This document shows, piece by piece, positions 10,551 to 51,652 of a DNA stretch of 64,000 nt. The position numbers and the translations under genes are program-made. The notes under the pieces were generated by a model that worked only from the letters and a program-made list of their open reading frames with translations, was not told where the DNA came from and made no database searches. Within the stretch, counting starts at the first letter, position 1; the number at the start of each line of letters is the position of its first letter. Origin of the DNA: Escherichia coli (GTDB lineage Bacteria; Pseudomonadota; Gammaproteobacteria; Enterobacterales; Enterobacteriaceae); assembly GCF_030013595.1 (NCBI RefSeq), contig NZ_CP122768.1; one strand, written 5' to 3'.

Positions 10551-11726
10551 TTACAGCTTGTTGTAAACACGCGCTAAACGGCCGTGGCCTTTGACAGTCA
10601 CCGGTGATTCGTTGGCGGCAATAAACGCTGATTCACCCGGTTTAAGCTGTAACTGCTGAGAACCTTTACACAGCGTTGCATCGCCTTCGACGCAGAACAA
10701 AATGGCGGCACTCTGCTGGCTGATGGTGGTTTCTTTATCACTAAGGTCATGCAGCGAGAAGGCAAAATCATCAACAGGAATCGGGAAGTCCAGTTCTGCA
10801 CCTTGTTTCACCGGCTGGGTCAACAACTGGTTAGCCGGTTTGGCTTCGAACTTCACATTGGTAACCAGTTCCGGAATATCAATGTATTTAGGCGTCAGAC
10901 CCGCACGCAGCACGTTATCGGAGTTAGCCATCACTTCCAGCGCCACGCCTTGCAGGTAAGCGTGCGGTGTTTCAGCGAACAGGAACATCGCTTCGCCCGG
11001 GTTCAATTTCACCACATTCAGCAATAGCGGGGAGAACAGACCGCTGTCTTCCGGGTAAAATTCAGAAATTAAACGAATCGTTTGCCACGGTTCACCCTGC
11101 TGGCTGTCGAGCGCCGATTTTAAAATCGCCAGCGCGCGGGATTTTTCTTCCCCCTGCATATTCAGCAGGCTGGCGAACAGTTCGCTTAAACGTTCGGCAT
11201 CAGGCTGTTGTAAAAAGTGAGCAATCGCCGGATGTGCACCTGCGACTGGCTGGAGTAGGGAAACAATCTCGGAAAATTCACGAAACGCATTCATCGCAAG
11301 GAAAGGCGTCAGCGCAAAAACCAGCTCCGGCTTGTGGTTAGGATCTTTATAGTTACGCTCGGCGGCATCCATCGGAATACCTGCGGCATTTTCTTTGGCA
11401 AAACCGATTTCAGAATTGCGTTTGTTTGGATGAACCTGAATGGAGAGCGGCTGTGCTGCGCATAATACTTTGAACAGGAAAGGCAGTTCGCCAAAGCGTT
11501 TGGCAACGGCCTCTCCGAGCAGAGTCGATTTATCACTCTCAATCACATCACGCAGTGAAACGATATCTCCGGCGGCATTCTGCACTCGTGAACTGCTTTT
11601 TGGATGTGCGCCCATCCACAGCTCGGCCATCGGCTGGCTGGACGGATTTTCCATACCATAAAGTTCAGTCAACGCCGTTTTGCTGCCCCAGGCATAGTTT
11701 TGCACTGAGTTAATGAGTTTTTGCAT
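10551..11726 (-). CDS. manA: mannose-6-phosphate isomerase
   Basis: Internal start MQKLINSVQNYAWGSKTALTELYGMENPSSQPMAELWMGAHPKSS gives 391 aa ManA; the track ORF begins at an upstream in-frame ATG. Confidence 0.9.
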   Translation of the reverse strand: MQKLINSVQNYAWGSKTALTELYGMENPSSQPMAELWMGAHPKSSSRVQNAAGDIVSLRDVIESDKSTLLGEAVAKRFGELPFLFKVLCAAQPLSIQVHPNKRNSEIGFAKENAAGIPMDAAERNYKDPNHKPELVFALTPFLAMNAFREFSEIVSLLQPVAGAHPAIAHFLQQPDAERLSELFASLLNMQGEEKSRALAILKSALDSQQGEPWQTIRLISEFYPEDSGLFSPLLLNVVKLNPGEAMFLFAETPHAYLQGVALEVMANSDNVLRAGLTPKYIDIPELVTNVKFEAKPANQLLTQPVKQGAELDFPIPVDDFAFSLHDLSDKETTISQQSAAILFCVEGDATLCKGSQQLQLKPGESAFIAANESPVTVKGHGRLARVYNKL

Positions 11727-39784: not shown

Positions 39785-40811
39785 TTATATTTTTTCGATC
39801 TCGACCAGATTAGTGTGCTGCGGGTTTCCCTTCGCCAGTGGTGAAGGGCGCAGAGTGGTTAGCGTATTCACACAGCCGCCATGGTCGATTTTATCGCCAG
39901 ACATATTGGCCTCGTGCCAGGCTCCCTGGCCCATAGCGCTAACCCCAGGGAGAATGCGTGGTGTTACTTTGGCTGGTAGCCGAACTTCGCCACGATGGTT
40001 AAACACCCGCACCATATCGCCGTTGGCAATCCCACGTTTCTGTGCATCTATAGGGTTGATCCACACCTCCTGACGGCAGGCTTCCTTCAGGACATCAATA
40101 TTGCCGTAGGTCGAGTGGGTACGGGATTTGTAATGGAAACCAAACAGTTGCAGTGGGAAGGTTCTACGTTCAGGGGAGTCCCAGCCTTCAAAGGTTGAGG
40201 CATAAACTGGCAGTGGGCTTATCACTTCATCTTTTTCCAGTTCCCAGGTACGGGCAATTTCCGCCAGCTTGCTGGAATAAATTTCAATCTTACCGGAAGG
40301 CGTTTTAAGTGGATTTGCCTCGGGGTCGTCACGAAATGCTTTGTAGGCGACAAAATGACCATTGGGATCTTTACGCTTATAGATACCCATTTTTTTCAGT
40401 TCGTCGTAAGACGGTAACGCCGGATCTTTGGCAAGCATTTTGGCGTACAGATGTTGTAACCATTGTTCCTGCGTGCGACCTTCTGTGAACTTTTGATAGA
40501 CGTCAGGTCCAAGACGTTTCGCGACTTCACTCAGGATCCAGTAAATCGGTTTGCGTTCGAATTTTTCGCTGGTGACTGGCTGAAGGAAAATGAGATATCC
40601 CATGTTACCTGCGTAGTCGTTAGGAATAATATCTTCCTGCTCAACGGTCATCAGGTCTGGCAGCAGAATGTCGGCATATTTTGCCGATGAGGTCATAAAG
40701 TTTTCGATGACCACAATCATTTCGCATTTCGATTCGTCCTGCAGAATTTCATGCGTTTTGTTGATGTCAGAATGCTGATTAACCAGGGTATTTCCCGCGT
40801 AGTTCCAGATG
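39785..40811 (-). pseudogene. ynfE: ynfE 3' fragment (codons from about IWNYAGNTL to the C-terminus), separated from its 5' part by a 9.4-kb insertion
   Basis: Translation aligns residue-by-residue with the C-terminal half of YnfF; homology begins exactly at the 11-bp repeat 40801-40811; the track ORF 39785..40951 is a chimera with insert-derived N-terminus. Confidence 0.85.
40801..40811 (+). repeat. left copy of 11-bp direct repeat AGTTCCAGATG (att core or target-site duplication)
   Basis: Identical 11-mer at 50242-50252; joining the flanks restores the in-frame ynfE sequence ...VPIKFIWNYAGNTL... Confidence 0.8.
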
Positions 40812-40876
40812 GACTCCACTGTCAGACGGATGGACGGACTTGAAGTAGTTGACTCAACGCTACTTAAGGTCCTGAT

Positions 40877-42485
40877 ATGACTGACATTAACTATGATAAT
40901 ACTGTATATCCATCCAGCTCTTTCTCTGGGTCTCCCTATCTGTATGGGCAAGTCTACACCTCAAGTCCTGACACAAGGCTGACACAAATCAATCTACTCA
41001 GCGTAGCTAAGCCTCAGTTAGTCCGTAGAGCCAATGGTCGATATACTATCCGCTTCAGACTCAAGGGACAGACCACACCGTTTCTTTCAGTATCGACCCG
41101 AAGCACAGACAGGAGAGTAGCCACAATGCGTCAGAGAGAGCTTGCAGCCACAGCTAAGGCCTTCATGTTGGATAGGCCTGAAGTCTCACTACAGGAGCTT
41201 ACAGAGCATCTCCGGTCTATGGCTGAGCAGTTCCTGACAGACGCTAGTGACGATTACTGGAATGGACTTGAGGTCGCTACTTTGGTGGACGAGAAGTCCA
41301 ACCTGAAGGAGCTAGCCGCTACGCAAGCCTTGAGTCTGGACCAGCAGAAGGGCATAAGGTTAGCGCTTGAAGTCCTGACCGCAGCACAGCAGAGGGTAGA
41401 TACTGGTGATACGTCCAGTCTAATCAAGCTGATTGGTGGTGGCGTAAGCCAGCTTACTGATGGAGATGACAATAACCTTACTAATAACTCAACTATATGC
41501 GACTCTACGTTGATTCTGAGGAACGAGCAGGGGGTCAGCCCGCAAGTATTCACGAGAGAGCGCCAACCATCTGTAGTTTTTTCAAGCCTAGTGTCCTCAC
41601 TGCTGGCTGAGAAGGTCCAGACCCTGAAGTCCTCCAGCTACAAGGACCTGTCGTCCTCACTGAATACCGTCTCTCGGTTTCTGCCTGAAGATATGGACCT
41701 GATGTCCCGCTCTGAGTGGCTGGCAGTGAGGGACGCTATGCTGGCTGCTGAGGTGAGACCATCGACAATCAACAAGCTGCTGACCAAAGCGAAGATGTGT
41801 CTCGATTATGGCCTGATGAATGGGCAACTTGAGGGCCGCAACCCTATTGAACGGATGAAGCTGACCAAGGATACCGACTCCAAGCGCAGAGCGTTCACAG
41901 ACGAGGAGCTGGAGAGACTTCTGGTCCGTGTTGAGGCTGAGTATCAGTTCACACGACACACGGCTCACACGACCTCTGAGGCCCGTAGATGGGCGTCTCT
42001 GGTGTCTGTGGTCACTGGCGCGAGGTCTGCTGAGGTCTGCCACCTGACTAAACGTGACGTTGTAACCTTGGACAATGGACTGGTCTGTATCGACATCAAT
42101 GAAGATGGGGACGGGAAGTCTGTGAAGAACAAACATTCAGTCCGACTTGTGCCGTTAACCGATGGGGCCTGTGGTTTCAGCCTGAAGTCCTTCCTCAAAT
42201 GGGTAGACACTCAGCCTGCTGATGGTCCCCTCTTTGGTATGACTCCGAGTGCCTACTCTAGTTGGTTTAACTCTAGGGTCCTGACTGAGGCCCTAGGAGA
42301 CGCTGAGAACGTTTCTCCACAGTCTGAGACATTGGCTGGCGACCCGAATGAAAGAGCGTGGAGTCAATCTGGTGGACGCTCAAGGCATCTTAGGTCACAG
42401 CAGTCAGTCCATTACGTATGACCTGTACGGGAAAGGACACGCTGTTGGTAGGCTGGCTGAGGTGCTGAAGACAGCTTTACTTTAA
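40877..42485 (+). pseudogene. tyrosine recombinase/integrase with apparent 1-nt frameshift upstream of box II
   Basis: ORF 40877-42421 contains box I (VVTGARSAEVCHLTKRDV) but ends out of frame; the HSLRHWLATRM...LGHSSQSITYDLYGKGH catalytic His-Arg-His-Tyr region is in another frame (42297-42485). True start is probably downstream of 40877, since arm-type repeats lie at 40968-40987. Confidence 0.6.
40968..40987 (+). repeat. two 11-bp-spaced direct repeats CTGACACAA (putative integrase arm-type sites, left arm)
   Basis: CTGACACAAGG and CTGACACAAAT in tandem; same motif recurs three times at the right end. Confidence 0.5.
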
Positions 42486-42562
42486 GTAGGAAGACCCAAG
42501 GTGGAGACCATATACGGCTTGATGGTTGAGACCTTGGGTCACTGAAGTCTGACTGAAGTTAG

Positions 42563-42603
42563 GGAGGGTGATAATAATCATAATCCCTCCTGACTATAGG
42601 CCC
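42563..42603 (+). promoter_or_regulatory. hairpin (GGAGGG-16 nt-CCCTCC) followed by T7-class promoter-like motif CTGACTATAGGCCC
   Basis: Direct reading of sequence; TATAGG core shared with motifs at 42801-43474. Confidence 0.35.
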
Positions 42604-42644
42604 ACTGGTTCGCCTTCGGCTGTCCGACTCTAAGTCTGTCTGTG

Positions 42645-42776
42645 GTCTTATTTAAACTGGTTCCCTAACTCAGGTCCTCCAACTTGGTGTCTTATTTAAA
42701 CTGGTTCCCTAACTCAGGTCCTCCAACTTGGTGTCTTATTTAAACTGGTTCCCTAACTCAGGCCCCTCCAAATTTC
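42645..42776 (+). repeat. three tandem copies of a 44-bp repeat (GTCTTATTTAAACTGGTTCCCTAACTCAGGTCCTCCAACTTGGT)
   Basis: Units start at 42645, 42689 and 42733; first two identical, third diverges in its last 14 nt. Confidence 0.85.
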
Positions 42777-42800
42777 GTTGTCTGTCAGCGACTTAAATAT

Positions 42801-42855
42801 CCCCTCACCTTAGAAGAGTTTAGGGTTCAGACCCTTAACTATCACCTTAGGAGAG
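42801..42855 (+). promoter_or_regulatory. pair of single-subunit phage RNAP promoter-like motifs (CCCCTCACCTTAGAAGAG and AACTATCACCTTAGGAGAG)
   Basis: Resemble SP6/T3-class promoters (…CACTATAGAAGAG / …CCCTCACTAAAGGGAGA); located just upstream of the 166-aa ORF. Confidence 0.35.
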
Positions 42856-42901
42856 ACGGGCCGTCCTCCACCCAATCAAAACCTTAAGAGGAGGACCATA
42901 C

Positions 42902-43402
42902 ATGGCTATTAAAATTCAGTGCTACACCGAGTCCGACAATGCGGCTTTCTTCGGTGACGATTCCGACCTCCAGCACCAGCTACCAGCACCGACATATGAC
43001 GAACCTAAGGCCCGCACAGGTAAGCCTCCTGTGGTCATCGACAACCGGGCTGTCCGTGCGTGGCTGATTGAGACTGGGTGTCTCTCCTATACGCAGCTTG
43101 TTGAGGCGTACCCGTGGGCTGACGATGTGTTCACAGGACTCTCACGGGCTACCAGTGGCGCTGTCGGTGCTGGACTCCCGGTATCTAAGGCGTACCTGTT
43201 CTCTGCCTTATATGGCACCAACGACATCTTCTCCCGTAACACAGCCAAATCCTACGCTGACATCACTGGGCGTTCACCGTCTCCTCGCTACCTGCGCCAC
43301 GTCAATAGCGTGCTTCAGGCTACGGCTGTGAATCTGGCTAAGGTTCTGAAGGACCGAGGGGATTTCACATGGTGGGATTACAACGATCAGTGCCTGTCCT
43401 GA
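42902..43402 (+). CDS. hypothetical protein (166 aa)
   Basis: ORF with GAGGAGG Shine-Dalgarno 8 nt upstream; no recognisable motifs. Confidence 0.55.
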   Translation: MAIKIQCYTESDNAAFFGDDSDLQHQLPAPTYDEPKARTGKPPVVIDNRAVRAWLIETGCLSYTQLVEAYPWADDVFTGLSRATSGAVGAGLPVSKAYLFSALYGTNDIFSRNTAKSYADITGRSPSPRYLRHVNSVLQATAVNLAKVLKDRGDFTWWDYNDQCLS

Positions 43403-43426
43403 GAGCCGCGCCAGCTCTGGGCTGGA

Positions 43427-43474
43427 ATACCCCCTCACTATAGGGACACCCCCTAAACTATCACTATAGGGGGG
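43427..43474 (+). promoter_or_regulatory. pair of T3/T7-class promoter-like motifs (CCCCCTCACTATAGGGACA and AACTATCACTATAGGGGGGA)
   Basis: First motif matches the T3 promoter core CCCTCACTAAAGGGA at 14 of 15 positions and the T7 core TCACTATAGGGA exactly; no RNAP gene in the element. Confidence 0.45.
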
Positions 43475-43620
43475 ACCAACCTTGCCTCTGCTTCTGATGC
43501 GTCAGAACACGCGAGGTCCTCCCGACATTAAGTATTCTCCTAAGTAATCAAGGCCCGTGACCGCCTCTGACAGACCTCCTGTATCGACCTCCAGCTCGTT
43601 AGCGTTCTTTAGTCGTCTCG

Positions 43621-43628
43621 GTTAGTAG
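43621..43628 (+). repeat. 8-bp target-site duplication GTTAGTAG (left) of IS66-family copy 1
   Basis: Identical octamer at 46329-46336 immediately outside the IS ends. Confidence 0.8.
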
Positions 43629-43712
43629 GTAACCGGCTCATTTAAACCGTCTGGTCTGTTTCCTCCGGCTCTACAAAAATAATGTCCATCATTTTTTAAT
43701 GGACACTATCGT

Positions 43713-44360
43713 ATGAAACACCGGACCTGGATCACTGAAGCTTTACGTCTTCACTTTGAAGAACATTTACCCCGGGTTGTGGCCGGGCGTCGCCTGGGTG
43801 TACCAAAATCAACAGTTTGTAGTATGTTCGTGCGCTTTCGGAGAGCTGGCCTTTCGTGGCCTTTGCCCGCAGGCATGTCGGAGCAGGAACTTGATGCCTG
43901 CCTTTACGGACAATTTTCCACGGTACCAGTCGTACGTCCTGAAAGCACCGTTATATCCGAAGCCCCCGTGGTAAAAAAACGTCCCCGGCGGCCCAACTTC
44001 CCTTATGAGTTTAAAATCGCCTTAGTGGAGCAGTCACTGCAGCCCGGAGCCTGTGTGGCGCAGATCGCCCGGGAAAACGGAATCAACGATAACCTGCTCT
44101 TCAACTGGCGCCATCAATACCGGAAAGGTGGCCTGCTGCCTTCCGGAAAAAATATGCCGGCACTGCTTCCCGTGACGTTAACGCCGGAGCCGGATAATAA
44201 AATCCCGGCCCCCGCACAGGAACCAGAGCAGATAAATACACCGTCCGACAGTCTGTGTTGTGAGCTGGTTCTGCCGGCCGGAACTCTCAGGCTTAAAGGT
44301 AAACTGACGCCGGCGTTATTACAGACACTTATCCGCGAAATAAAAGGGAGCAGCCACTGA
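43713..44360 (+). CDS. IS66-family accessory protein (orf1, HTH)
   Basis: 215 aa first ORF of the IS. Confidence 0.8.
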   Translation: MKHRTWITEALRLHFEEHLPRVVAGRRLGVPKSTVCSMFVRFRRAGLSWPLPAGMSEQELDACLYGQFSTVPVVRPESTVISEAPVVKKRPRRPNFPYEFKIALVEQSLQPGACVAQIARENGINDNLLFNWRHQYRKGGLLPSGKNMPALLPVTLTPEPDNKIPAPAQEPEQINTPSDSLCCELVLPAGTLRLKGKLTPALLQTLIREIKGSSH

Positions 44361-44707
44361 TGATATCTCTCCCTGCAGGTTCGCGTATCTGGCTGGTTGC
44401 AGGTATCACCGATATGCGAAATGGCTTTAACGGCCTGGCATCAAAAGTTCAGAACGTCCTGAAGGATGACCCGTTCTCCGGACACCTGTTCATCTTCCGC
44501 GGACGCCGGGGTGACCAGATAAAAGTGTTGTGGGCTGACAGTGACGGACTGTGCCTCTTCACCAAACGCCTGGAGCGGGGCCGCTTCGTCTGGCCAGTCA
44601 CCCGTGACGGCAAGGTGCACCTTACTCCGGCTCAGTTATCCATGCTTCTTGAAGGTATCAACTGGAAGCACCCGAAACGAACGGAACGCGCTGGAATCCG
44701 CATATAA
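44360..44707 (+). CDS. IS66-family Orf2 (TnpB-like)
   Basis: 115 aa MISLPAGSRIWLVAGITDMRNGFNGLA..., typical IS66 orf2; start overlaps orf1 stop. Confidence 0.85.
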   Translation: MISLPAGSRIWLVAGITDMRNGFNGLASKVQNVLKDDPFSGHLFIFRGRRGDQIKVLWADSDGLCLFTKRLERGRFVWPVTRDGKVHLTPAQLSMLLEGINWKHPKRTERAGIRI

Positions 44708-44726
44708 CCCGTTGTAAAGTGAGGAT

Positions 44727-46298
44727 ATGGACACCTCACTTGCTCATGAGAACGCCCGCCTGCGGGCACTGTTGCAGACGCAACAGGACACCATCCGCCA
44801 GATGGCTGAATACAACCGCCTGCTCTCACAGCGGGTGGCGGCTTATGCTTCCGAAATCAACCGGCTGAAGGCGCTGGTTGCGAAACTGCAACGTATGCAG
44901 TTCGGTAAAAGCTCAGAAAAACTTCGTGCAAAAACCGAACGGCAGATACAGGAAGCACAGGAGCGAATCAGCGCACTTCAGGAAGAAATGGCGGAAACGC
45001 TGGGTGAGCAATATGACCCGGTACTGCCATCCGCCCTGCGCCAGTCTTCAGCCCGTAAACCGTTACCGGCCTCACTTCCCCGTGAAACCCGGGTTATCCG
45101 GCCGGAAGAGGAATGCTGTCCTGCCTGTGGTGGTGAACTCAGTTCTCTGGGATGTGATGTGTCAGAGCAACTGGAGCTTATCAGCAGCGCCTTTAAGGTT
45201 ATCGAAACACAACGTCCGAAACAGGCCTGTTGCCGGTGCGACCATATCGTACAGGCACCAGTACCTTCAAAACCCATTGCACGCAGTTATGCCGGAGCGG
45301 GGCTTCTGGCCCATGTTGTCACCGGGAAATATGCAGACCATCTGCCGTTATACCGCCAGTCAGAAATATACCGTCGTCAGGGAGTGGAGCTGAGCCGTGC
45401 CACACTGGGGCGCTGGACAGGTGCTGTTGCTGAACTGCTGGAGCCGCTGTATGACGTCCTGCGCCAGTATGTGCTGATGCCCGGTAAAGTCCATGCTGAT
45501 GATATCCCCGTCCCGGTCCAGGAGCCGGGCAGCGGTAAAACCCGGACAGCCCGGCTGTGGGTCTACGTCCGTGATGACCGTAACGCCGGTTCACAGATGC
45601 CCCCGGCGGTCTGGTTCGCGTACAGTCCGGACCGGAAAGGTATCCATCCACAAAATCACCTGGCCGGTTACAGCGGTGTGCTTCAGGCCGATGCTTACGG
45701 TGGTTACCGGGCGTTATACGAATCCGGCAGAATAACGGAAGCCGCGTGTATGGCTCATGCCCGGAGAAAAATCCACGATGTGCATGCAAGAGCGCCCACC
45801 TACATCACCACGGAAGCCCTGCAGCGTATCGGTGAACTGTATGCCATCGAGGCAGAGGTCCGGGGCTGTTCAGCAGAACAGCGTCTGGCGGCAAGAAAAG
45901 CCAGAGCCGCGCCACTGATGCAGTCACTGTATGACTGGATACAGCAACAGATGAAAACACTGTCGCGTCACTCAGATACGGCAAAAGCGTTCGCATACCT
46001 GCTGAAACAGTGGGATGCACTGAACGTGTACTGCAGTAATGGCTGGGTGGAAATCGACAACAACATCGCAGAGAACGCCTTACGGGGAGTGGCCGTAGGC
46101 CGGAAAAACTGGATGTTCGCGGGTTCCGACAGCGGTGGTGAACATGCGGCGGTGTTGTACTCGCTGATCGGCACATGCCGTCTGAACAATGTGGAGCCAG
46201 AAAAGTGGCTGCGTTACGTCATTGAACATATCCAGGACTGGCCGGCAAACCGGGTACGCGATCTGTTGCCCTGGAAAGTTGATCTGAGCTCTCAGTAA
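44727..46298 (+). CDS. IS66-family transposase (orf3)
   Basis: 523 aa with N-terminal leucine-zipper-like region, CxxC...CxxC zinc finger and DDE region. Confidence 0.85.
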
Positions 46299-46328
46299 AT
46301 ATCAATACGGTTCTGACGAGTCGCTTAC

Positions 46329-46336
46329 GTTAGTAG
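46329..46336 (+). repeat. 8-bp target-site duplication GTTAGTAG (right) of IS66-family copy 1
   Basis: Matches 43621-43628. Confidence 0.8.
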
Positions 46337-46582
46337 CTCGTCTACTCACTACATTGGCTTAAGTCTATCACCGCTCACCATCTGGAGTCCTTACAGCTCG
46401 TCCTGACATGCGGTCTCACCTTATATGCACATGGAGAACATGGCCACTCCAGACCAACACTAATCAACATTAACCCTATTCACTTTCGTTAAGCATTTTT
46501 TGGTGGGTCCGTTTGGATGCATTGAATAGGTGCGGACTCCACGTGGAGACAGAAAGTGCTTTACTAAAGGAGCATCCTTTAT

Positions 46583-46972
46583 ATGACTATTAAATCCATC
46601 GTTATCAACGGTAAGACCATCCTGTCTACACCTAACGCCATCAATGAGGGTGTCTGGTTCGACATGCTTGAGGTCCATCAAGCTGCTGGCTTGCCTGCTA
46701 ACAAGACGTTCTCACAGTGGCGCAGCCGACAGTCTCGTGCATTAGAAGAGGCTGGAGAGGTGTCGTTTGACAGTGTACAGAAGACCCTGTGTGGCAGCTT
46801 TGTGGCAGTGCTGGCCTACCTTATGTGGGCGGACCTTACTCTCTGGCTGGCGGTGGTTCGTTACGTTGCGTCTGAGACTATCGGCGTCCTGCCTGACCGC
46901 TTCAAGTCTATCGACGGTGATAACCCCGAGTTAGAAATGTCAGAGGATAACAGCGAGTGGGAGGACTTCTAA
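46583..46972 (+). CDS. KilA-N domain protein (129 aa)
   Basis: N-terminal pattern (INGKTI...NEGVWFDMLEV...GLPANKTFSQW) and hydrophobic WxxxLxxxL segment typical of KilA-N/APSES DNA-binding domains. Confidence 0.5.
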   Translation: MTIKSIVINGKTILSTPNAINEGVWFDMLEVHQAAGLPANKTFSQWRSRQSRALEEAGEVSFDSVQKTLCGSFVAVLAYLMWADLTLWLAVVRYVASETIGVLPDRFKSIDGDNPELEMSEDNSEWEDF

Positions 46973-46973
46973 G

Positions 46974-47714
46974 ATGACCATGAGCCAGCTTGAAGCATTA
47001 CCTATCGTCATCGAGGGTCATTCATTCATCTGCAACGACCAGCGCATGTGGAACCTGAACGAGATTCACCGAGTGTTAGGTCTTCCAGCAAGCAAGATGC
47101 CGTCTGAGTGGAATAACAAGATTCGCACACAACTTGACCGCTCCGGAAATTTCCGGACCGTGAATGGTGACGGCGGTGGTACATGGGCGACCGAGGCTGG
47201 GACCGTGGCTTATGCTATGTGGGTCTCTACAGATTTCTACCTGATGGTCATCAATGCTTTCATCTTTATGCGTAACGACGCAATCGTCCGAGAGCGTGTA
47301 GCGGTCAAACAGGCTGACGAGGCTAACGCTAACCTCTCCATCGCAGCACCTAAGGCAGACATCTTTGACGGTCGTCTGACCAATGGTGGCTCTGTTCCGT
47401 GGAACTGGGCGTGTAAATCTTTGGGTCTTGCCCCGATGAAACTGAAAGAGGGCTTGAAGCGCTCCGGTAAGTTCGTCCAGAAGTGGAACCCTGACAGTTA
47501 CGCCGACGAGCTTCGACCTCAGGAGAAGGCGTTCAGTATTGGACTATTCGTCACTAAGTCAGTCATGGGTAAAGACACATGGCAGGTGACAGCTAAAGGC
47601 TACGCATGGATGCAGGGGAACGCCCAGAAGTGGAGAGAGCTAATAGCTGATGGTGACCGCTTAAAGGCTGCTGAGCGTCGAGCACAGAAGCGTCTTAACC
47701 GTGGAGGTAAGTAG
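46974..47714 (+). CDS. KilA-N domain protein with C-terminal extension (246 aa)
   Basis: Paralogous to upstream ORF (IEGHSFICNDQRMWNLNEIHRVLGLPASKMPSEW... GTWATEAGTVAYAMWVSTDFYLMV). Confidence 0.5.
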   Translation: MTMSQLEALPIVIEGHSFICNDQRMWNLNEIHRVLGLPASKMPSEWNNKIRTQLDRSGNFRTVNGDGGGTWATEAGTVAYAMWVSTDFYLMVINAFIFMRNDAIVRERVAVKQADEANANLSIAAPKADIFDGRLTNGGSVPWNWACKSLGLAPMKLKEGLKRSGKFVQKWNPDSYADELRPQEKAFSIGLFVTKSVMGKDTWQVTAKGYAWMQGNAQKWRELIADGDRLKAAERRAQKRLNRGGK

Positions 47715-47716
47715 TC

Positions 47717-47941
47717 ATGGCTATGATTGACCCTCGTACACCTATCGGCAAAGCGACCCTTCGTTACCGTGGTCTGCCTACACGTCATCTGCTGTCCCTG
47801 CTGAGACTTGGAGTCGAAGACCCCGAACGCCCGTACTACAGTCGAGACGAGCTAATAGCTATGTTGGTGGACCGTGATTTAGACAATCAGTTACGCCGAG
47901 CCTTTGCGAAGTCTAGCGCAGCTAGGGAACTGGAGTCCTGA
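47717..47941 (+). CDS. hypothetical protein (74 aa)
   Basis: ORF tightly coupled to upstream gene (3-nt gap). Confidence 0.4.
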   Translation: MAMIDPRTPIGKATLRYRGLPTRHLLSLLRLGVEDPERPYYSRDELIAMLVDRDLDNQLRRAFAKSSAARELES

Positions 47942-48146
47942 ACCTTATGGGGCAGAAAAACCGCCGCATAAACCTATCGTCTGCTGACCGAAGTTTCGAC
48001 GCATTGAGCCAGACGGAAAAGTTTTCCTGCTGGTAAACCACCTTAATTTAAACACCTTTTGAGAATGACCGATGCGGGGAGACCCGTAGGCATAACTGTG
48101 TCTGCGATACCGATAGTTCTCACCTTCTCAATAGGAGTACTACCTT

Positions 48147-48638
48147 ATGTTATTCAACAACAACGACTGGAAACTATCAGTCACCGACATCAATCCCTAT
48201 GAAAATACTGTGAGTCTGGACGGTCAGTCCTATCCGCTGTCTCTGGCGATTAAGACCCTGATTCCGGGCTACCTGTCAGGCTTACCGTCCACCAGCCGCG
48301 AGGCGATGGAGTTACTGGAAGCTCTGGCTGAAGCTGGCGTGTCCATTGGCAACTTCTTCAGTAATGACCTGATGACCGCCTATGGTCGCCGCCAGCAGAA
48401 CAAGCGAGCCGAAGCTGAGCGTATTGCTAAAGAGCAGCGCATTCAGGCTGAGCGTATGCGTGAAGAGAACATGACTGATGCAGAGTGGCAGAAAGAGCTA
48501 CAGCGCCGTGAACAGGTCAAAGCTGAACGCCGGACCTATGGTGAGCACCTCCGCAGTGCTACCCATTCCGCTGGGCGCTCCCGTGCTTCTATGGTCGCTG
48601 ACATTGAGTCCACGGACAACTGGATGGACAGCCTCTAA
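48147..48638 (+). CDS. hypothetical coiled-coil protein (163 aa)
   Basis: C-terminal half highly charged and heptad-like (RRQQNKRAEAERIAKEQRIQAERMREENMTDAEWQKELQRREQVKAERR). Confidence 0.5.
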   Translation: MLFNNNDWKLSVTDINPYENTVSLDGQSYPLSLAIKTLIPGYLSGLPSTSREAMELLEALAEAGVSIGNFFSNDLMTAYGRRQQNKRAEAERIAKEQRIQAERMREENMTDAEWQKELQRREQVKAERRTYGEHLRSATHSAGRSRASMVADIESTDNWMDSL

Positions 48639-48704
48639 GACACAGACACACAAGTGGTCCTGACCTGATGTCGGGACCCACAGTATCCAAACTAATTTAG
48701 GAGA

Positions 48705-49700
48705 TTGATTATTATGACGATTAAAGACGCTTTCCAGTTCGGCATTGAGCCAGTACGTATCAGCGACACCGACAACATTCAGATTAACGAAGGTTTGCCA
48801 ACTAACGCAGACCCGCAGGTCTATGCCCTCCAGTTAGCTAAGACGGTTAAGGCTATGCTGAACGGTGTACTTAAAGACGCTCAAGAGAACATCCCGTTCC
48901 CTGTAGAAGTCCTGCCGACCCGCAATAGCCTGCCTACTCCAATCATTGCTCACACTCTGGCTGATCGCTCTGTGGTCGTTCCTGTCCGTGGTGGTAAGCG
49001 ACCTGAAGTCGTGACCGTTCCGTCTGGACAAGAAATCGTGGTCGAACCAATCGAGCAGGCTATTCTCATCTCTGAGCAGACCAAGCTCTGGGACGCCAAG
49101 TCATCCACCGGATTCACTCAGGGCACACTTCAGCAGGACGCTATGAACATCTGTGAGAATGTGGTCCGTACCATCAACGCTCGCATGGTCGACGTTCTGG
49201 AGTCCTCCAAACTGTTGAAGACCGTAGAGCTGCCAGTCCTGACTGGAAGCCTGACCACTAAGGCAGACGCTATCATGGACGCTCTGTTTGAGAACACCGA
49301 GTCCTCTTTCGGCTCTGAAGTGTCTGATTACGGCATCATCGCCCATGAGTCCCAACTGAAAGCGCTGTCCCGTCTGGCAGCTAAACAGGGCTTCTCTGGT
49401 GGAGACGCTATCGTGGATATGCTGGGTACCGACATCGCCTATTACAACGGTGAAGACAAGGGTGTATTCATGCTGGCTAAACGCTTCACGGCCCTGAGCT
49501 TCGGCTGCTTCCGTCACGACGGTGAGAATATTACGGTCGTCCTTTCACGTGATGGCGACTCTCAGTCCCACGACTTGGAAATCCTCGGTAAAGTGTTCGT
49601 TGTCGCTGAAGCTGCTACGACCATCAAGATGGGCACTGGCTCAGCTACTGCCGTCCTGCCTGTAGTCAAACGCCTGAAGTTCACCAAGACCGAAGCGTAA
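48705..49700 (+). CDS. hypothetical protein (331 aa), possible structural/morphogenetic protein
   Basis: Largest non-integrase ORF of the element; follows the coiled-coil ORF; AGGAG Shine-Dalgarno upstream; no motif I can assign. Confidence 0.5.
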   Translation: MIIMTIKDAFQFGIEPVRISDTDNIQINEGLPTNADPQVYALQLAKTVKAMLNGVLKDAQENIPFPVEVLPTRNSLPTPIIAHTLADRSVVVPVRGGKRPEVVTVPSGQEIVVEPIEQAILISEQTKLWDAKSSTGFTQGTLQQDAMNICENVVRTINARMVDVLESSKLLKTVELPVLTGSLTTKADAIMDALFENTESSFGSEVSDYGIIAHESQLKALSRLAAKQGFSGGDAIVDMLGTDIAYYNGEDKGVFMLAKRFTALSFGCFRHDGENITVVLSRDGDSQSHDLEILGKVFVVAEAATTIKMGTGSATAVLPVVKRLKFTKTEA

Positions 49701-49844
49701 GACCAATGGGTAAGAGGTAAGTCTGGACTGAATATCAGCAGGACTTCAGGTGGTGGCCTGTCACTGTGATTAACTAACTACGGTCTGGACCAATGGTCTG
49801 GGCCTTATTACTGGTATGGTAGTATACAGGCGAAGGAGGACCCA

Positions 49845-50000
49845 ATGTCTATGACTTCCGCAGACCTAAGGTCCCTCCTGACTCTGGTCTATAAACTCGT
49901 GTTCCTCTCTGTGGGTCTCTACATGGTTCTCTCTGGTCGACTCGGTGTGGATGTGTTCGACACTCTGTCTAAGGCTGTGGGTGGACTTCTAGGTCCTTAG
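49845..50000 (+). CDS. small single-pass membrane protein (51 aa)
   Basis: ATG with AGGAGGA Shine-Dalgarno; MSMTSADLRSLLTLVYKLVFLSVGLYMVLSGRLGVDVFDTLSKAVGGLLGP; below ORF-track cutoff. Confidence 0.4.
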   Translation: MSMTSADLRSLLTLVYKLVFLSVGLYMVLSGRLGVDVFDTLSKAVGGLLGP

Positions 50001-50153
50001 GTTTGGACTCACAGTGGGACCGATGATTTCTGACAGAAAAATGTGAATGACCATCTAATACATTAAGCCAGCAGACTTCCCCCCATAGTCCCGCCTCAAG
50101 TCCAGACCGAGGCCACCGGGGGTCCTGACCAGCCGTCTAGACATCCCGTCTAA

Positions 50154-50186
50154 TGACACAAGTCTGGCACAAAGCCTGACACAAAG
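50154..50186 (+). repeat. three 11-bp-spaced direct repeats TGACACAAG / TGGCACAAAG / TGACACAAAG (putative arm-type sites, right arm)
   Basis: Same motif and orientation as 40968-40987 at the opposite end of the element. Confidence 0.5.
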
Positions 50187-50241
50187 TCCTTGACTCAATG
50201 CAGGACCTCAGGCCTACTAAGGGTCCGCTTCAAGTCCTTGA

Positions 50242-50252
50242 AGTTCCAGATG
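50242..50252 (+). repeat. right copy of 11-bp direct repeat AGTTCCAGATG
   Basis: Identical to 40801-40811. Confidence 0.8.
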
Positions 50253-51652
50253 AACTTAATGGGCACATCCAGTTTATCTTTGCCGCGGACGCCGTCGCGG
50301 ATTGCCGTCATTTGCGGGCCATGATCGATAGCATCCGTCCAGCTGAAGCAGGAGATTGACGTTTTGACCGGATTATCCAGCACCGGTAGGCGTTCTATGG
50401 TAATGGTATAGGTCGATTCACGCGCGCCACTATTCCCGCCGCTGATGCCGACATTGCCCGTCAAAATAGGCAACATAGCAATAGCGCGTGCGGTCAGCTC
50501 ACCGTTTGCCTGGCGTTGCGGCCCCCAGCCCTGGCAGATATAAGCGGGTTTTGCTGTGCCAATTTCACGCGCCAGTTTGATGATACGGTCCACCGGGATA
50601 CCGGTAATTTGCGAAGCCCACTGCGGCGTTTTCGCTGTTTTATCGTCACCTTCACCAAGAATATAGGCTTTATAGTGACCATTTTTTGGTGCATCTGCGG
50701 GTAAGGTTTTTTCGTCATAGCCGACGCAGTATTTATCAAGAAAAGGTTGATCAACGAGATTTTCGTTAATCAATACCCAGGCAATACCCGCAACCAGCGC
50801 GGCATCGGTGCCCGGGCGAATAGGAAGCCATTCGTCTTCACGACCGGCAGCCGTATCGGTATATCGCGGATCGATAACAATCATTTTTGCGTTCGATTTC
50901 TCGCGCGCTTTTTCAAGAAGATAAGTGATGCCACCACCGCTCATGCGGGTTTCTGCCGGGTTGTTACCAAACATCACGACCAGCTTGCTGTTTTCAATAT
51001 CCGTGGTGCTGTTGCCATCATTACTGCCGTAGGTGTAGGGCATGGCACAGGAAATTTGCGCGGTGCTGTAGGAGCCATACTGGTTGAGTGAGCCGCCGTA
51101 GCAGTTCATCAGGCGTTTGACCGCCGAGGCGGATGGCGAAGAGCGGGTCATATTGCCGCCAACAATCCCCGAAGAGTACTGAATATATACAGCCTCATTG
51201 TCATATTGTTCGACGGTTTTTTTCAGGCTACTGGCGATAGTATCCAGGGCTTCATCCCAGCTAATCCGTTCGAATTTGCCTTCGCCGCGTTTGCCCACGC
51301 GTTTCATTGGGTAATTCAAGCGGTCGGGATGATTAATACGCCGACGGATGGAGCGACCGCGCAAACAGGCGCGTACTTGATGATTGCCATACTCATCGCT
51401 GCCGGTGTTGTCAGTTTCCACCCAGGTCACTTCATTATCTTTAACATGCAGACGAAGTGCACAGCGGCTACCACAGTTGACGGAACAGGCACCCCAGACC
51501 ACTTTCTCGCTGGCCTGTTGTACTGCTGCCGCTGCACTGCGCAGGGTGAACGGTAAAGAAAAACCGCCTGCAGCCAGCGCCAGAGAACCTATCGCGGTAG
51601 ATTTAACGAGTGTTCTGCGGCTGATGCCCACCATTTGTTCATTTTTGGACAT
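50242..51652 (-). pseudogene. ynfE: ynfE 5' fragment (Tat signal and N-terminal about 465 codons)
   Basis: MSKNEQMVGISRRTLVKSTAIGSLALAAGG twin-arginine leader; homology to YnfF ends at ...LDVPIKFIWN where the insert begins. Confidence 0.85.

Follow-up and report, generated by a model that had tools for sequence, protein, structure and literature searches.

Introduction

Int of bacteriophage lambda is a heterobivalent tyrosine integrase, and its arm sites are known as P1, P2 and P'1–P'3. Here we describe an element inserted in the ynfE gene of Escherichia coli (hereafter the ynfE element), which lies in a 64-kb stretch of contig NZ_CP122768.1 (the window, meaning the whole stretch that was analysed) and has near its ends five short repeats that are probably arm-type sites of the same sort. 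Several features are shared with lambda. Two plus three short repeats surround a short core, those of the triple follow one another in tandem at intervals of roughly one helical turn, and their sequence bears no relation to that of the core; the half-site in attB is weak, and the integrase has a small N-terminal sheet-plus-helix domain (predicted here) and a C-terminal PF00589 catalytic domain. There are also differences from lambda. All five sites of the ynfE element have one orientation, and the pair is placed within int or at its 5' end; the integrase, of about 540 residues, has a long helical stretch inserted between its N-domain and its catalytic domain; insertion takes place within a protein-coding gene, ynfE, and inactivates it; and no Xis was recognised. 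As a lambda-style attP, these arm sites are an ordinary kind of feature. They matter as the recombination module of an element seemingly built to parasitise T7-like phages, a context that lifts their interest well above that of ordinary att sites.

The cf-PICI (for example EcCI2), P4, PICI, PLE and PICMI elements resemble the ynfE element in being small and integrated, with an integrase and att sites, few virion genes and helper-type cis signals. The ynfE element differs from them in being only 6.7 kb, and searches with PHROGs, NCBIfam and Pfam found in it no AlpA, primase-replicase, terminase small subunit, portal or head-tail adaptor/connector. It does not have the genes that define a PICI or cf-PICI, and a capsid fold alone is common to both. 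Unlike these satellites, it has as its presumed helper a virulent T7-like podophage, and its expression seems to be wired to the single-subunit RNA polymerase of that helper, in two promoter specificities. T7 and its relatives, classic among virulent phages, are in wide use as tools; our literature search turned up no description of a satellite of T7-like phages. T7 packaging-competent plasmids, reportedly described by Chung and Hinkle in 1990, are said to consist of an origin at the last phage promoter and a concatemer junction, the two cis elements needed for packaging by T7. The ynfE element has comparable parts, namely a promoter region with a downstream hairpin (32 bp identical to Kayfunavirus) and a segment resembling the junction and terminal repeat. 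In contrast to those plasmids it is natural, chromosomal and integrase-borne, and it has its own capsid gene. Both the helper wiring and the function of these parts are read here from sequence alone.

The target gene has been noted before. The TIGER survey lists ynfE among the genes whose integrity an integrative element controls (a split target; PMC7192596). The retrieved passages of that survey concern the same target, without arm sites, phage promoters, a capsid gene or a T7-like helper.

Results

The element and its boundaries

The DNA on both sides of the element is E. coli ynfE, on the − strand. When 40512–40811 is joined to 50253–50552, the result is an intact ynfE at 100% identity, and this empty-site join is held over at least 80% of its length in 5116 of 5426 complete E. 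coli genomes. Because the join restores ynfE, we place the element at 40812–50252, bounded by a direct repeat:

40801..40811, no strand: attL copy of the 11-bp core AGTTCCAGATG; the element starts at 40812
50242..50252, no strand: attR copy of the core AGTTCCAGATG, whose last base, 50252, closes the element

Eight loci have the core at both ends. All eight E. coli copies that we fetched (L001–L008) are in ynfE, seven of them with both cores inside the fetched stretch. The family is carried by about 151 of the 5426 E. coli genomes (~3%), as relatives at 88–98% identity. Copies free of insertion sequences (IS) measure 6.4–6.8 kb, and the window element is 6.7 kb once its IS is subtracted.

The gene ynfE is split (39785–40811 and 50253–51652) and is not restored by the element. 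The neighbouring paralogue ynfF is intact, which may make the insertion tolerable.

Repeats at both ends of the element

The preliminary description of this DNA reported arm-like TGACACAA repeats at both ends, in one orientation and spaced 11 bp. The repeats are indeed there, at the coordinates it gave and in a single orientation; the uniform spacing does not hold, since the last interval on the right is 12 bp:

40968..40978 and 40979..40989, + strand: left arm-type repeat pair, CTGACACAAGG and CTGACACAAAT, 11-bp spacing
50154..50186, + strand: right arm-type repeat triple, TGACACAAG at 50154, TGGCACAAAG at 50165 and TGACACAAAG at 50177, spacing 11 and 12 bp
40877..42485, + strand: tyrosine integrase gene (int), a pseudogene here (Pfam PF00589 and PHROG integrase matches)

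A consensus, TGRCACAA, is found at 40969/40980 and 50154/50165/50177, on the + strand throughout. The left pair lies ~157–168 bp inside attL, within int codons 31–37, and the right triple 56–88 bp ahead of the attR core. On the excised circle the order is therefore simple to state: three sites (−88 to −56), the core AGTTCCAGATG, two sites (+167 to +188) and the coding sequence of the Int N-domain. Short repeats that differ in sequence from the core thus flank it on both sides within ~200 bp.

The window has eight TGRCACAA matches on its two strands, against 6.07 expected from shuffles. Five of the eight fall within the ~400 nt at the two ends of the insertion, where ~0.02 would be expected (Poisson P ~1e-11, our own arithmetic from the window-wide shuffle rate). 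The preliminary description had proposed a comparison of motif frequency between the element and its flanks; both this motif and the second one, discussed below, are in excess within the element.

Conservation of the repeats and of their layout

The repeats are conserved among close relatives. In an alignment of nine attL copies, the 26-nt block that holds the left pair, CCTGACACAAGGCTGACACAAATCAA, is invariant; the columns around it vary at 14 of 76 positions before and ~16 of 24 after, including an in-frame 6-nt indel. The eight aligned attR copies keep the repeats of the right triple, with variable spacers. The translation of the left pair, SPDTRLTQI, is invariant in 120 of 120 protein clusters and has variable residues on either side.

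Repeats are also found in more distant relatives. Four integrase lineages at 38–47% identity have repeats at equivalent positions, and their common layout is three sites, core, two sites, int. The relatives (L021 and L023 being short contigs) include:

L012/L014 (Int 41% identical), left side: TGTCACAA/TGCCACAA pair, 45 nt 5' of the ATG
L012/L014, right side: triple with 11- and 12-bp spacing, 70–100 bp before the attR core CAGCGACAACGTCAA
L023 (Int 47% identical), left side: TGACACAA twice, 11 bp apart, across its ATG; contig too short to show the right side
Marine L018–L020 (Int 38% identical), left side: CTGTTAGAAA twice at 11 bp, in codons 9–15
Marine L018–L020, right side: good copies at 11416 and 11438 plus a degenerate middle copy, before attR

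With respect to the start of int, the left pair is inside the open reading frame (ORF) here, upstream of the ATG in L012 and spanning it in L023. What stays constant across lineages is that the pair is directly 5' of the coding sequence of the Int N-domain. Moreover, the repeat sequence tracks the type of that domain, PQLVRR-type domains going with TGNCACAA and WHYRR-type domains with CTGTTAGAAA. It does not track the promoter type, which is Kayfunavirus-like and T3-like in the E. coli copies and T7-type in L012.

The repeats as probable arm-type sites

True att junctions, conservation of the repeats, a layout shared with distant integrase lineages and covariation with the Int N-domain all point the same way. 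We consider it probable that the five TGRCACAA(R) repeats are arm-type sites in the attP of an arm-dependent (lambda-style) tyrosine integrase, as the preliminary description had suggested for attL and attR. Likely core-type sites can be read off the reconstructed attP as well, in a candidate 9-6-9 arrangement, AGTCCTTGA/AGTTCC/AGATGGACT. A structure model of the Int N-terminal domain predicts three strands and a helix (residues ~44–97) behind a disordered leader, which is the topology of known arm-binding domains.

We infer from this arrangement that Int binds the repeats and may regulate its own gene. The small N-terminal domain would grip an arm site and the C-terminal domains the weak core sites; bridging of arm and core by Int would then build the complex responsible for integration into ynfE and for excision. 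Because the left pair sits within int codons 31–37, Int bound there may also dampen its own expression. The repeats in the window copy are relics, since its int has a 2-bp frameshift and an IS66-family insertion lies mid-element.

Several observations weigh against the arm-site interpretation. Lambda's two arms are mutually inverted, and here all five sites point in the same direction. Neither L022 (P0131; a different kind of island) nor L024 has clear repeats, and the candidate repeats of L015, ACCCTTAG, are hard to separate from a motif abundant in L015 in general. The remaining points concern the right triple, which is found ~100–132 nt past what appears to be a mimic of a phage genome end:

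50005..50130, + strand: diverged mimic of a T7-like right-end junction and the start of the terminal repeat, GGGACCGATGA...CCATCT/AATAC...CCCCCCATAG...CTCAAGTCC, the slash marking the junction

The Kayfunavirus terminal repeat has, in the matching region, its own 11-bp-phased pair of CCGAAGTC, and the unit CACAAAGYC resembles the CCTAAAGYC repeats of T7. Because the triple is near the phage-end mimic and the phage has a phased pair of its own there, the triple may belong to a packaging mimic. The repeats, or at least the right triple, would then be part of a T7-like genome end, read by the packaging or end-processing machinery of the helper. In keeping with this, 50005–50130 aligns with the right-end junction and terminal-repeat start of the phage, the two phage copies of CCGAAGTC are at a similar distance from the end, and AAGTC-type units recur in element and phage alike. 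However, the conserved part of the repeats is TGRCACAAR and not the AAGTC tail, positions past CACAAR varying between copies, and no phage repeat unit that we saw is identical to the repeat. The left pair, moreover, is on the far side of the att core and in every case immediately precedes the part of int that encodes the N-domain, and the repeat follows the type of that domain across lineages whose helper promoter types differ. We therefore regard a genome-end origin of the repeats as quite unlikely.

The repeats might also bind a protein other than Int, encoded by the element or the host, such as a directionality factor or a repressor of int. Tandem phased sites near int and the core are typical of Xis-type factors too, and a pair that overlaps or abuts the int start in three lineages would suit a regulator. 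Yet PHROGs and NCBIfam searches recognised no excisionase-like gene, the middle modules, where a gene for such a factor might lie, differ from copy to copy (KilA-N, AP2, HNH, Rha) whereas the repeats are invariant, and Int alone co-varies with the repeats. Binding by another protein is, in our view, very unlikely, and we retain Int as the probable ligand of the five sites.

The integrase gene and its start

The predicted start of int is ATG 40877, which puts the left pair inside the ORF. The preliminary description had recognised that the pair is inside the 5' part of the ORF and had concluded that the real start is probably further downstream. The first statement is right; the second conflicts with the coding conservation, which begins ~20 nt after the pair. 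From ~40995 the stretch that begins LVRRANGRYTIRFRLKG is under coding constraint (synonymous changes and an in-frame 6-nt indel), and the N-termini of homologues with as little as 30% identity can be aligned to it. No in-frame ATG, GTG or TTG exists between 40877 and 41127, leaving ATG 40877 as the only canonical start; a conserved TAAGG Shine–Dalgarno sequence precedes it, 120 of 120 related protein clusters begin MTDIN, and nearly all public calls start there. The one shorter public annotation belongs to L001, where an in-frame TGA interrupts the N-terminal domain and accounts for it. We also considered a start at ATG 41127, which has a good Shine–Dalgarno sequence (AGGAGA), and rejected it, since the 130 nt upstream are conserved coding sequence.

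An intact homologue of Int matches the tyrosine recombinase catalytic domain PF00589 at E=1.6e-12. In the window copy, a 2-bp deletion near 42327 (seen by alignment with four intact copies) shifts the catalytic second Arg, His and Tyr out of frame, so that this copy cannot excise by itself.

A second recurring motif

The preliminary description had further listed GGTCCTGAC or close variants at four non-coding positions and had suggested an operator or promoter element. All four positions are correct: exact copies are at 48656 and 50121, and one-mismatch copies at 40868 (GGTCCTGAT) and 46399 (CGTCCTGAC). The list was incomplete, however, in that another exact copy, at 42277, is coding, inside int. 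Within the motif, the 8-mer GTCCTGAC has seven copies on the + strand of the element and is absent from its − strand and from both strands of the remaining 54.5 kb. The expectation under Markov models of order 0–3 is 0.1–1.0 copies, and any 8-mer reached seven copies in only 1 of 300 third-order simulations. The copies are:

40965..40972, + strand: overlaps the first left arm repeat
41372..41379, + strand: inside int, read GTC CTG ACC
42278..42285, + strand: inside int, read GTC CTG ACT; gone in L001 through synonymous changes
46400..46407, + strand: non-coding, 5' of a 129-aa gene
48657..48664, + strand: 5' arm of a hairpin (48654–48681) between the DUF6971 and capsid genes
49236..49243, + strand: inside the capsid gene, read GTC CTG ACT
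50122..50129, + strand: in conserved sequence that separates the phage-end mimic from the right triple

Might the motif be an operator or promoter element, that is, a protein-binding site controlling the genes of the element? The excess is real and strand-specific, every E. coli variant has 5–7 copies of GTCCTGAC, also within non-homologous modules, four copies are non-coding, and there is some likeness to the candidate core half-site AGTCCTTGA. Against this, the three coding copies all read in the frame GTC CTG ACN, which consists of preferred codons; the motif has neither a fixed distance to gene starts or phage promoters nor an extended consensus, and one copy was lost by synonymous changes in L001; distant relatives do not have it. 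As for promoters, there is no sigma-70 signal at the copies, a scan of sigma-70 promoters and terminators gave no enrichment (3 vs 2.0 and 2 vs 1.8), and the T7-group promoters present in the element, described below, differ in sequence. The hairpin at 48654–48681 is unexceptional (−16.4 kcal/mol, z = −1.7).

Octamers of the type GTCNNGAC also abound in the genomes of T7-like phages, in part because of codon usage: phage IMM-002 has GTCTGGAC 16 times, GTCAGGAC 11 times and GTCCTGAC four times. This richness points to a shared compositional dialect. We rank above an operator, which seems unlikely, the interpretation that GTCCTGAC is part of a T7-like sequence dialect and end region. Two other explanations were rejected. 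A pure codon artefact does not fit, as only three of the seven copies are read in the common frame and the other four are non-coding or differently framed; nor does an oriented signal shared with the helper, as IMM-002 favours the reverse GTCAGGAC over GTCCTGAC, 11 to 4. In IMM-002 (L011), GTCTGGAC is the commonest 8-mer, with 16 copies on the + strand against three of its complement; it is read in more than one frame and is present in the terminal repeat too. The same 8-mer is found five times in the element.

Signals of T7-like phages within the element

The promoters of the element, as predicted from sequence, are of the phage type and occur as two tandem pairs. Together with a segment identical to phage DNA and a tandem repeat just downstream of it, they lie between int and the IS:

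42567..42598, + strand: 32 bp 100% identical to Kayfunavirus phages (phiYIO1-1, IMM-002), by sequence search
42645..42771, + strand: 44-bp tandem repeat, 2.9 copies, just downstream of the phage-identical hairpin
42794..42856, + strand: tandem phage-RNA-polymerase promoters, class B (...CCCCTCACCTTAGAAGAG) then class A (CTTAACTATCACCTTAGGAGAG)
43424..43475, + strand: second tandem promoter pair, class B (AATACCCCCTCACTATAGGGACA) then class A (CTAAACTATCACTATAGGGG)

Class A is the promoter consensus of Kayfunavirus IMM-002, CT(A/T)AACTATCACTATAGG, and the copy at 43450, CTAAACTATCACTATAGGG, equals IMM-002 promoters. Class B matches T3-like and phiEap-1-like phages, at several places per genome in the T3-like ones, and the match in T3 is annotated 'promoter'. 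Promoters of the T7 group are confined to the elements and, within them, to the coding strand. The same tandem pairs are seen in related elements, and L012 has three near-consensus T7 promoters, one of them directly upstream of int.

The phage counterpart of 42567–42598 is non-coding, lies between the terminase gene and gene 19.5 and is downstream of the last promoter. This segment forms a hairpin of −18.5 kcal/mol (z = −3.25). The 44-bp repeat beside it possibly represents origin iterons.

Within the end mimic at 50005–50130, the counterpart of the phage end falls at ~50053/50054. A blastn search of the right end (49700–50260) against phages gave marginal matches only, and the mimic was found by reading and aligning. 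A second type of end region, far closer to Kayfunavirus, is present in the sister elements L002, L006 and L007; that of L002 and L007 has CGATGAGTTTTGGACCAAAAGTT.GAGA in common with the phages.

A putative satellite with its own capsid protein

Two genes at the right of the element are conserved together in distant relatives:

48147..48638, + strand: 163-aa charged protein of the DUF6971 family, directly 5' of the capsid gene
48714..49700, + strand: HK97-fold major capsid protein, 331 aa (328–331 aa among copies), from a structure model

The capsid protein had no tblastn match in 50,697 phage records. The DUF6971 protein, whose window copy has no significant Pfam match, may be scaffold-like, judging by position only.

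Phage promoters, phage identities, the end mimic and the capsid fold together suggest that the ynfE element is a satellite of virulent T7-like phages. It is integrated, has its own int and att sites, and is without a full set of virion, replication or lysis genes; its promoters, the 32-bp identity and the end-junction mimic are cis signals specific to a helper. We infer that it depends on such a helper for expression and packaging. On infection, the helper RNA polymerase would fire the consensus phage promoters of the element and the helper replisome would copy it; the helper terminase would recognise the genome-end mimic, and the DNA might be packed into heads made of the element's own HK97-fold capsid protein.

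An alternative is that we are looking at the remnant of a defective integrated T7-like prophage, or at an unrelated island with phage fragments. The dependence on a helper is, after all, deduced from sequence, the window copy has decayed (IS66, frameshift), and T7-like phages with integrases exist, marine cyanopodoviruses among them. Against a remnant, the fetched E. coli copies all show one compact gene complement of 6.4–6.8 kb (int, variable regulator, DUF6971, capsid) between att sites that are intact, and int-to-capsid loci occur in distant bacteria as well. Genes for an RNA polymerase, a DNA polymerase, a portal, a tail or a terminase are missing from the element, but it has kept consensus phage promoters, on the coding strand only, and its capsid is without a detectable sequence relative in the phage records searched. 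On balance a remnant or chance island appears rather unlikely, and we continue with a satellite of T7-like phages as the preferred interpretation.

It is possible, and we propose this tentatively, that these elements form a class of their own, as yet undescribed: minimal satellites that encode a capsid and exploit virulent T7-like phages, present in enterobacteria and, in a related form, in marine bacteria. Such an element would stay silent until a helper RNA polymerase reads its promoters, whose two specificities would make at least two phage groups exploitable; it would copy the end signals of its helper and build small heads of its own, and it would excise fast, with arm sites in the 5' coding region of int for self-control. 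If the elements are indeed satellites of T7-like phages, the family offers a directly testable system to study how a chromosomal element escapes a lytic infection that lasts 15–25 minutes and in which the host genome is destroyed, how the range of helpers depends on the specificity of the promoters, and how 6.7 kb of DNA come to be packaged when the capsid protein is the element's own and the terminase is borrowed. The family, carried by ~3% of complete E. coli genomes, would also be relevant to phage therapy and to T7-based expression hosts.

Other genes and minor features

The rest of the element consists of an IS and a variable middle module:

43630..46328, + strand: IS66-family insertion with tnpA/tnpB/tnpC; 8-bp target duplication GTTAGTAG at 43622–43629 and 46329–46336
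46974..47714, + strand: KilA-N/anti-repressor-like regulator in a variable middle module, with AP2, HNH or Rha genes in other copies

The three ORFs of the IS encode 215, 115 and 523 aa, and related records annotate the ISCro1 family. Elsewhere in the family, copies have IS21 or IS66 insertions in different positions. Searches of the 166-, 129-, 74-, 163-, 331- and 51-aa ORFs with PHROGs, NCBIfam and Pfam gave nothing besides the KilA-N/anti-repressor match, and an Rfam search gave no family. Among the relatives, L015 (7259–11344) and L018 (5092–9120) encode a 1340–1360-aa protein with a lytic transglycosylase (SLT) domain, which recalls the T7 internal virion protein gp16, and L024 carries a T7 gp0.4-like gene.

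Finally, a short palindrome stands near each end of the element and is conserved in all copies:

40848..40856, no strand: palindrome TTGACTCAA, 37 bp after the core
50190..50198, no strand: twin palindrome TTGACTCAA, 43 bp before the core

This palindrome could be a site for an accessory protein or a −35 element. At the site that matches the right palindrome, after its triple, L012 has TTGACT.

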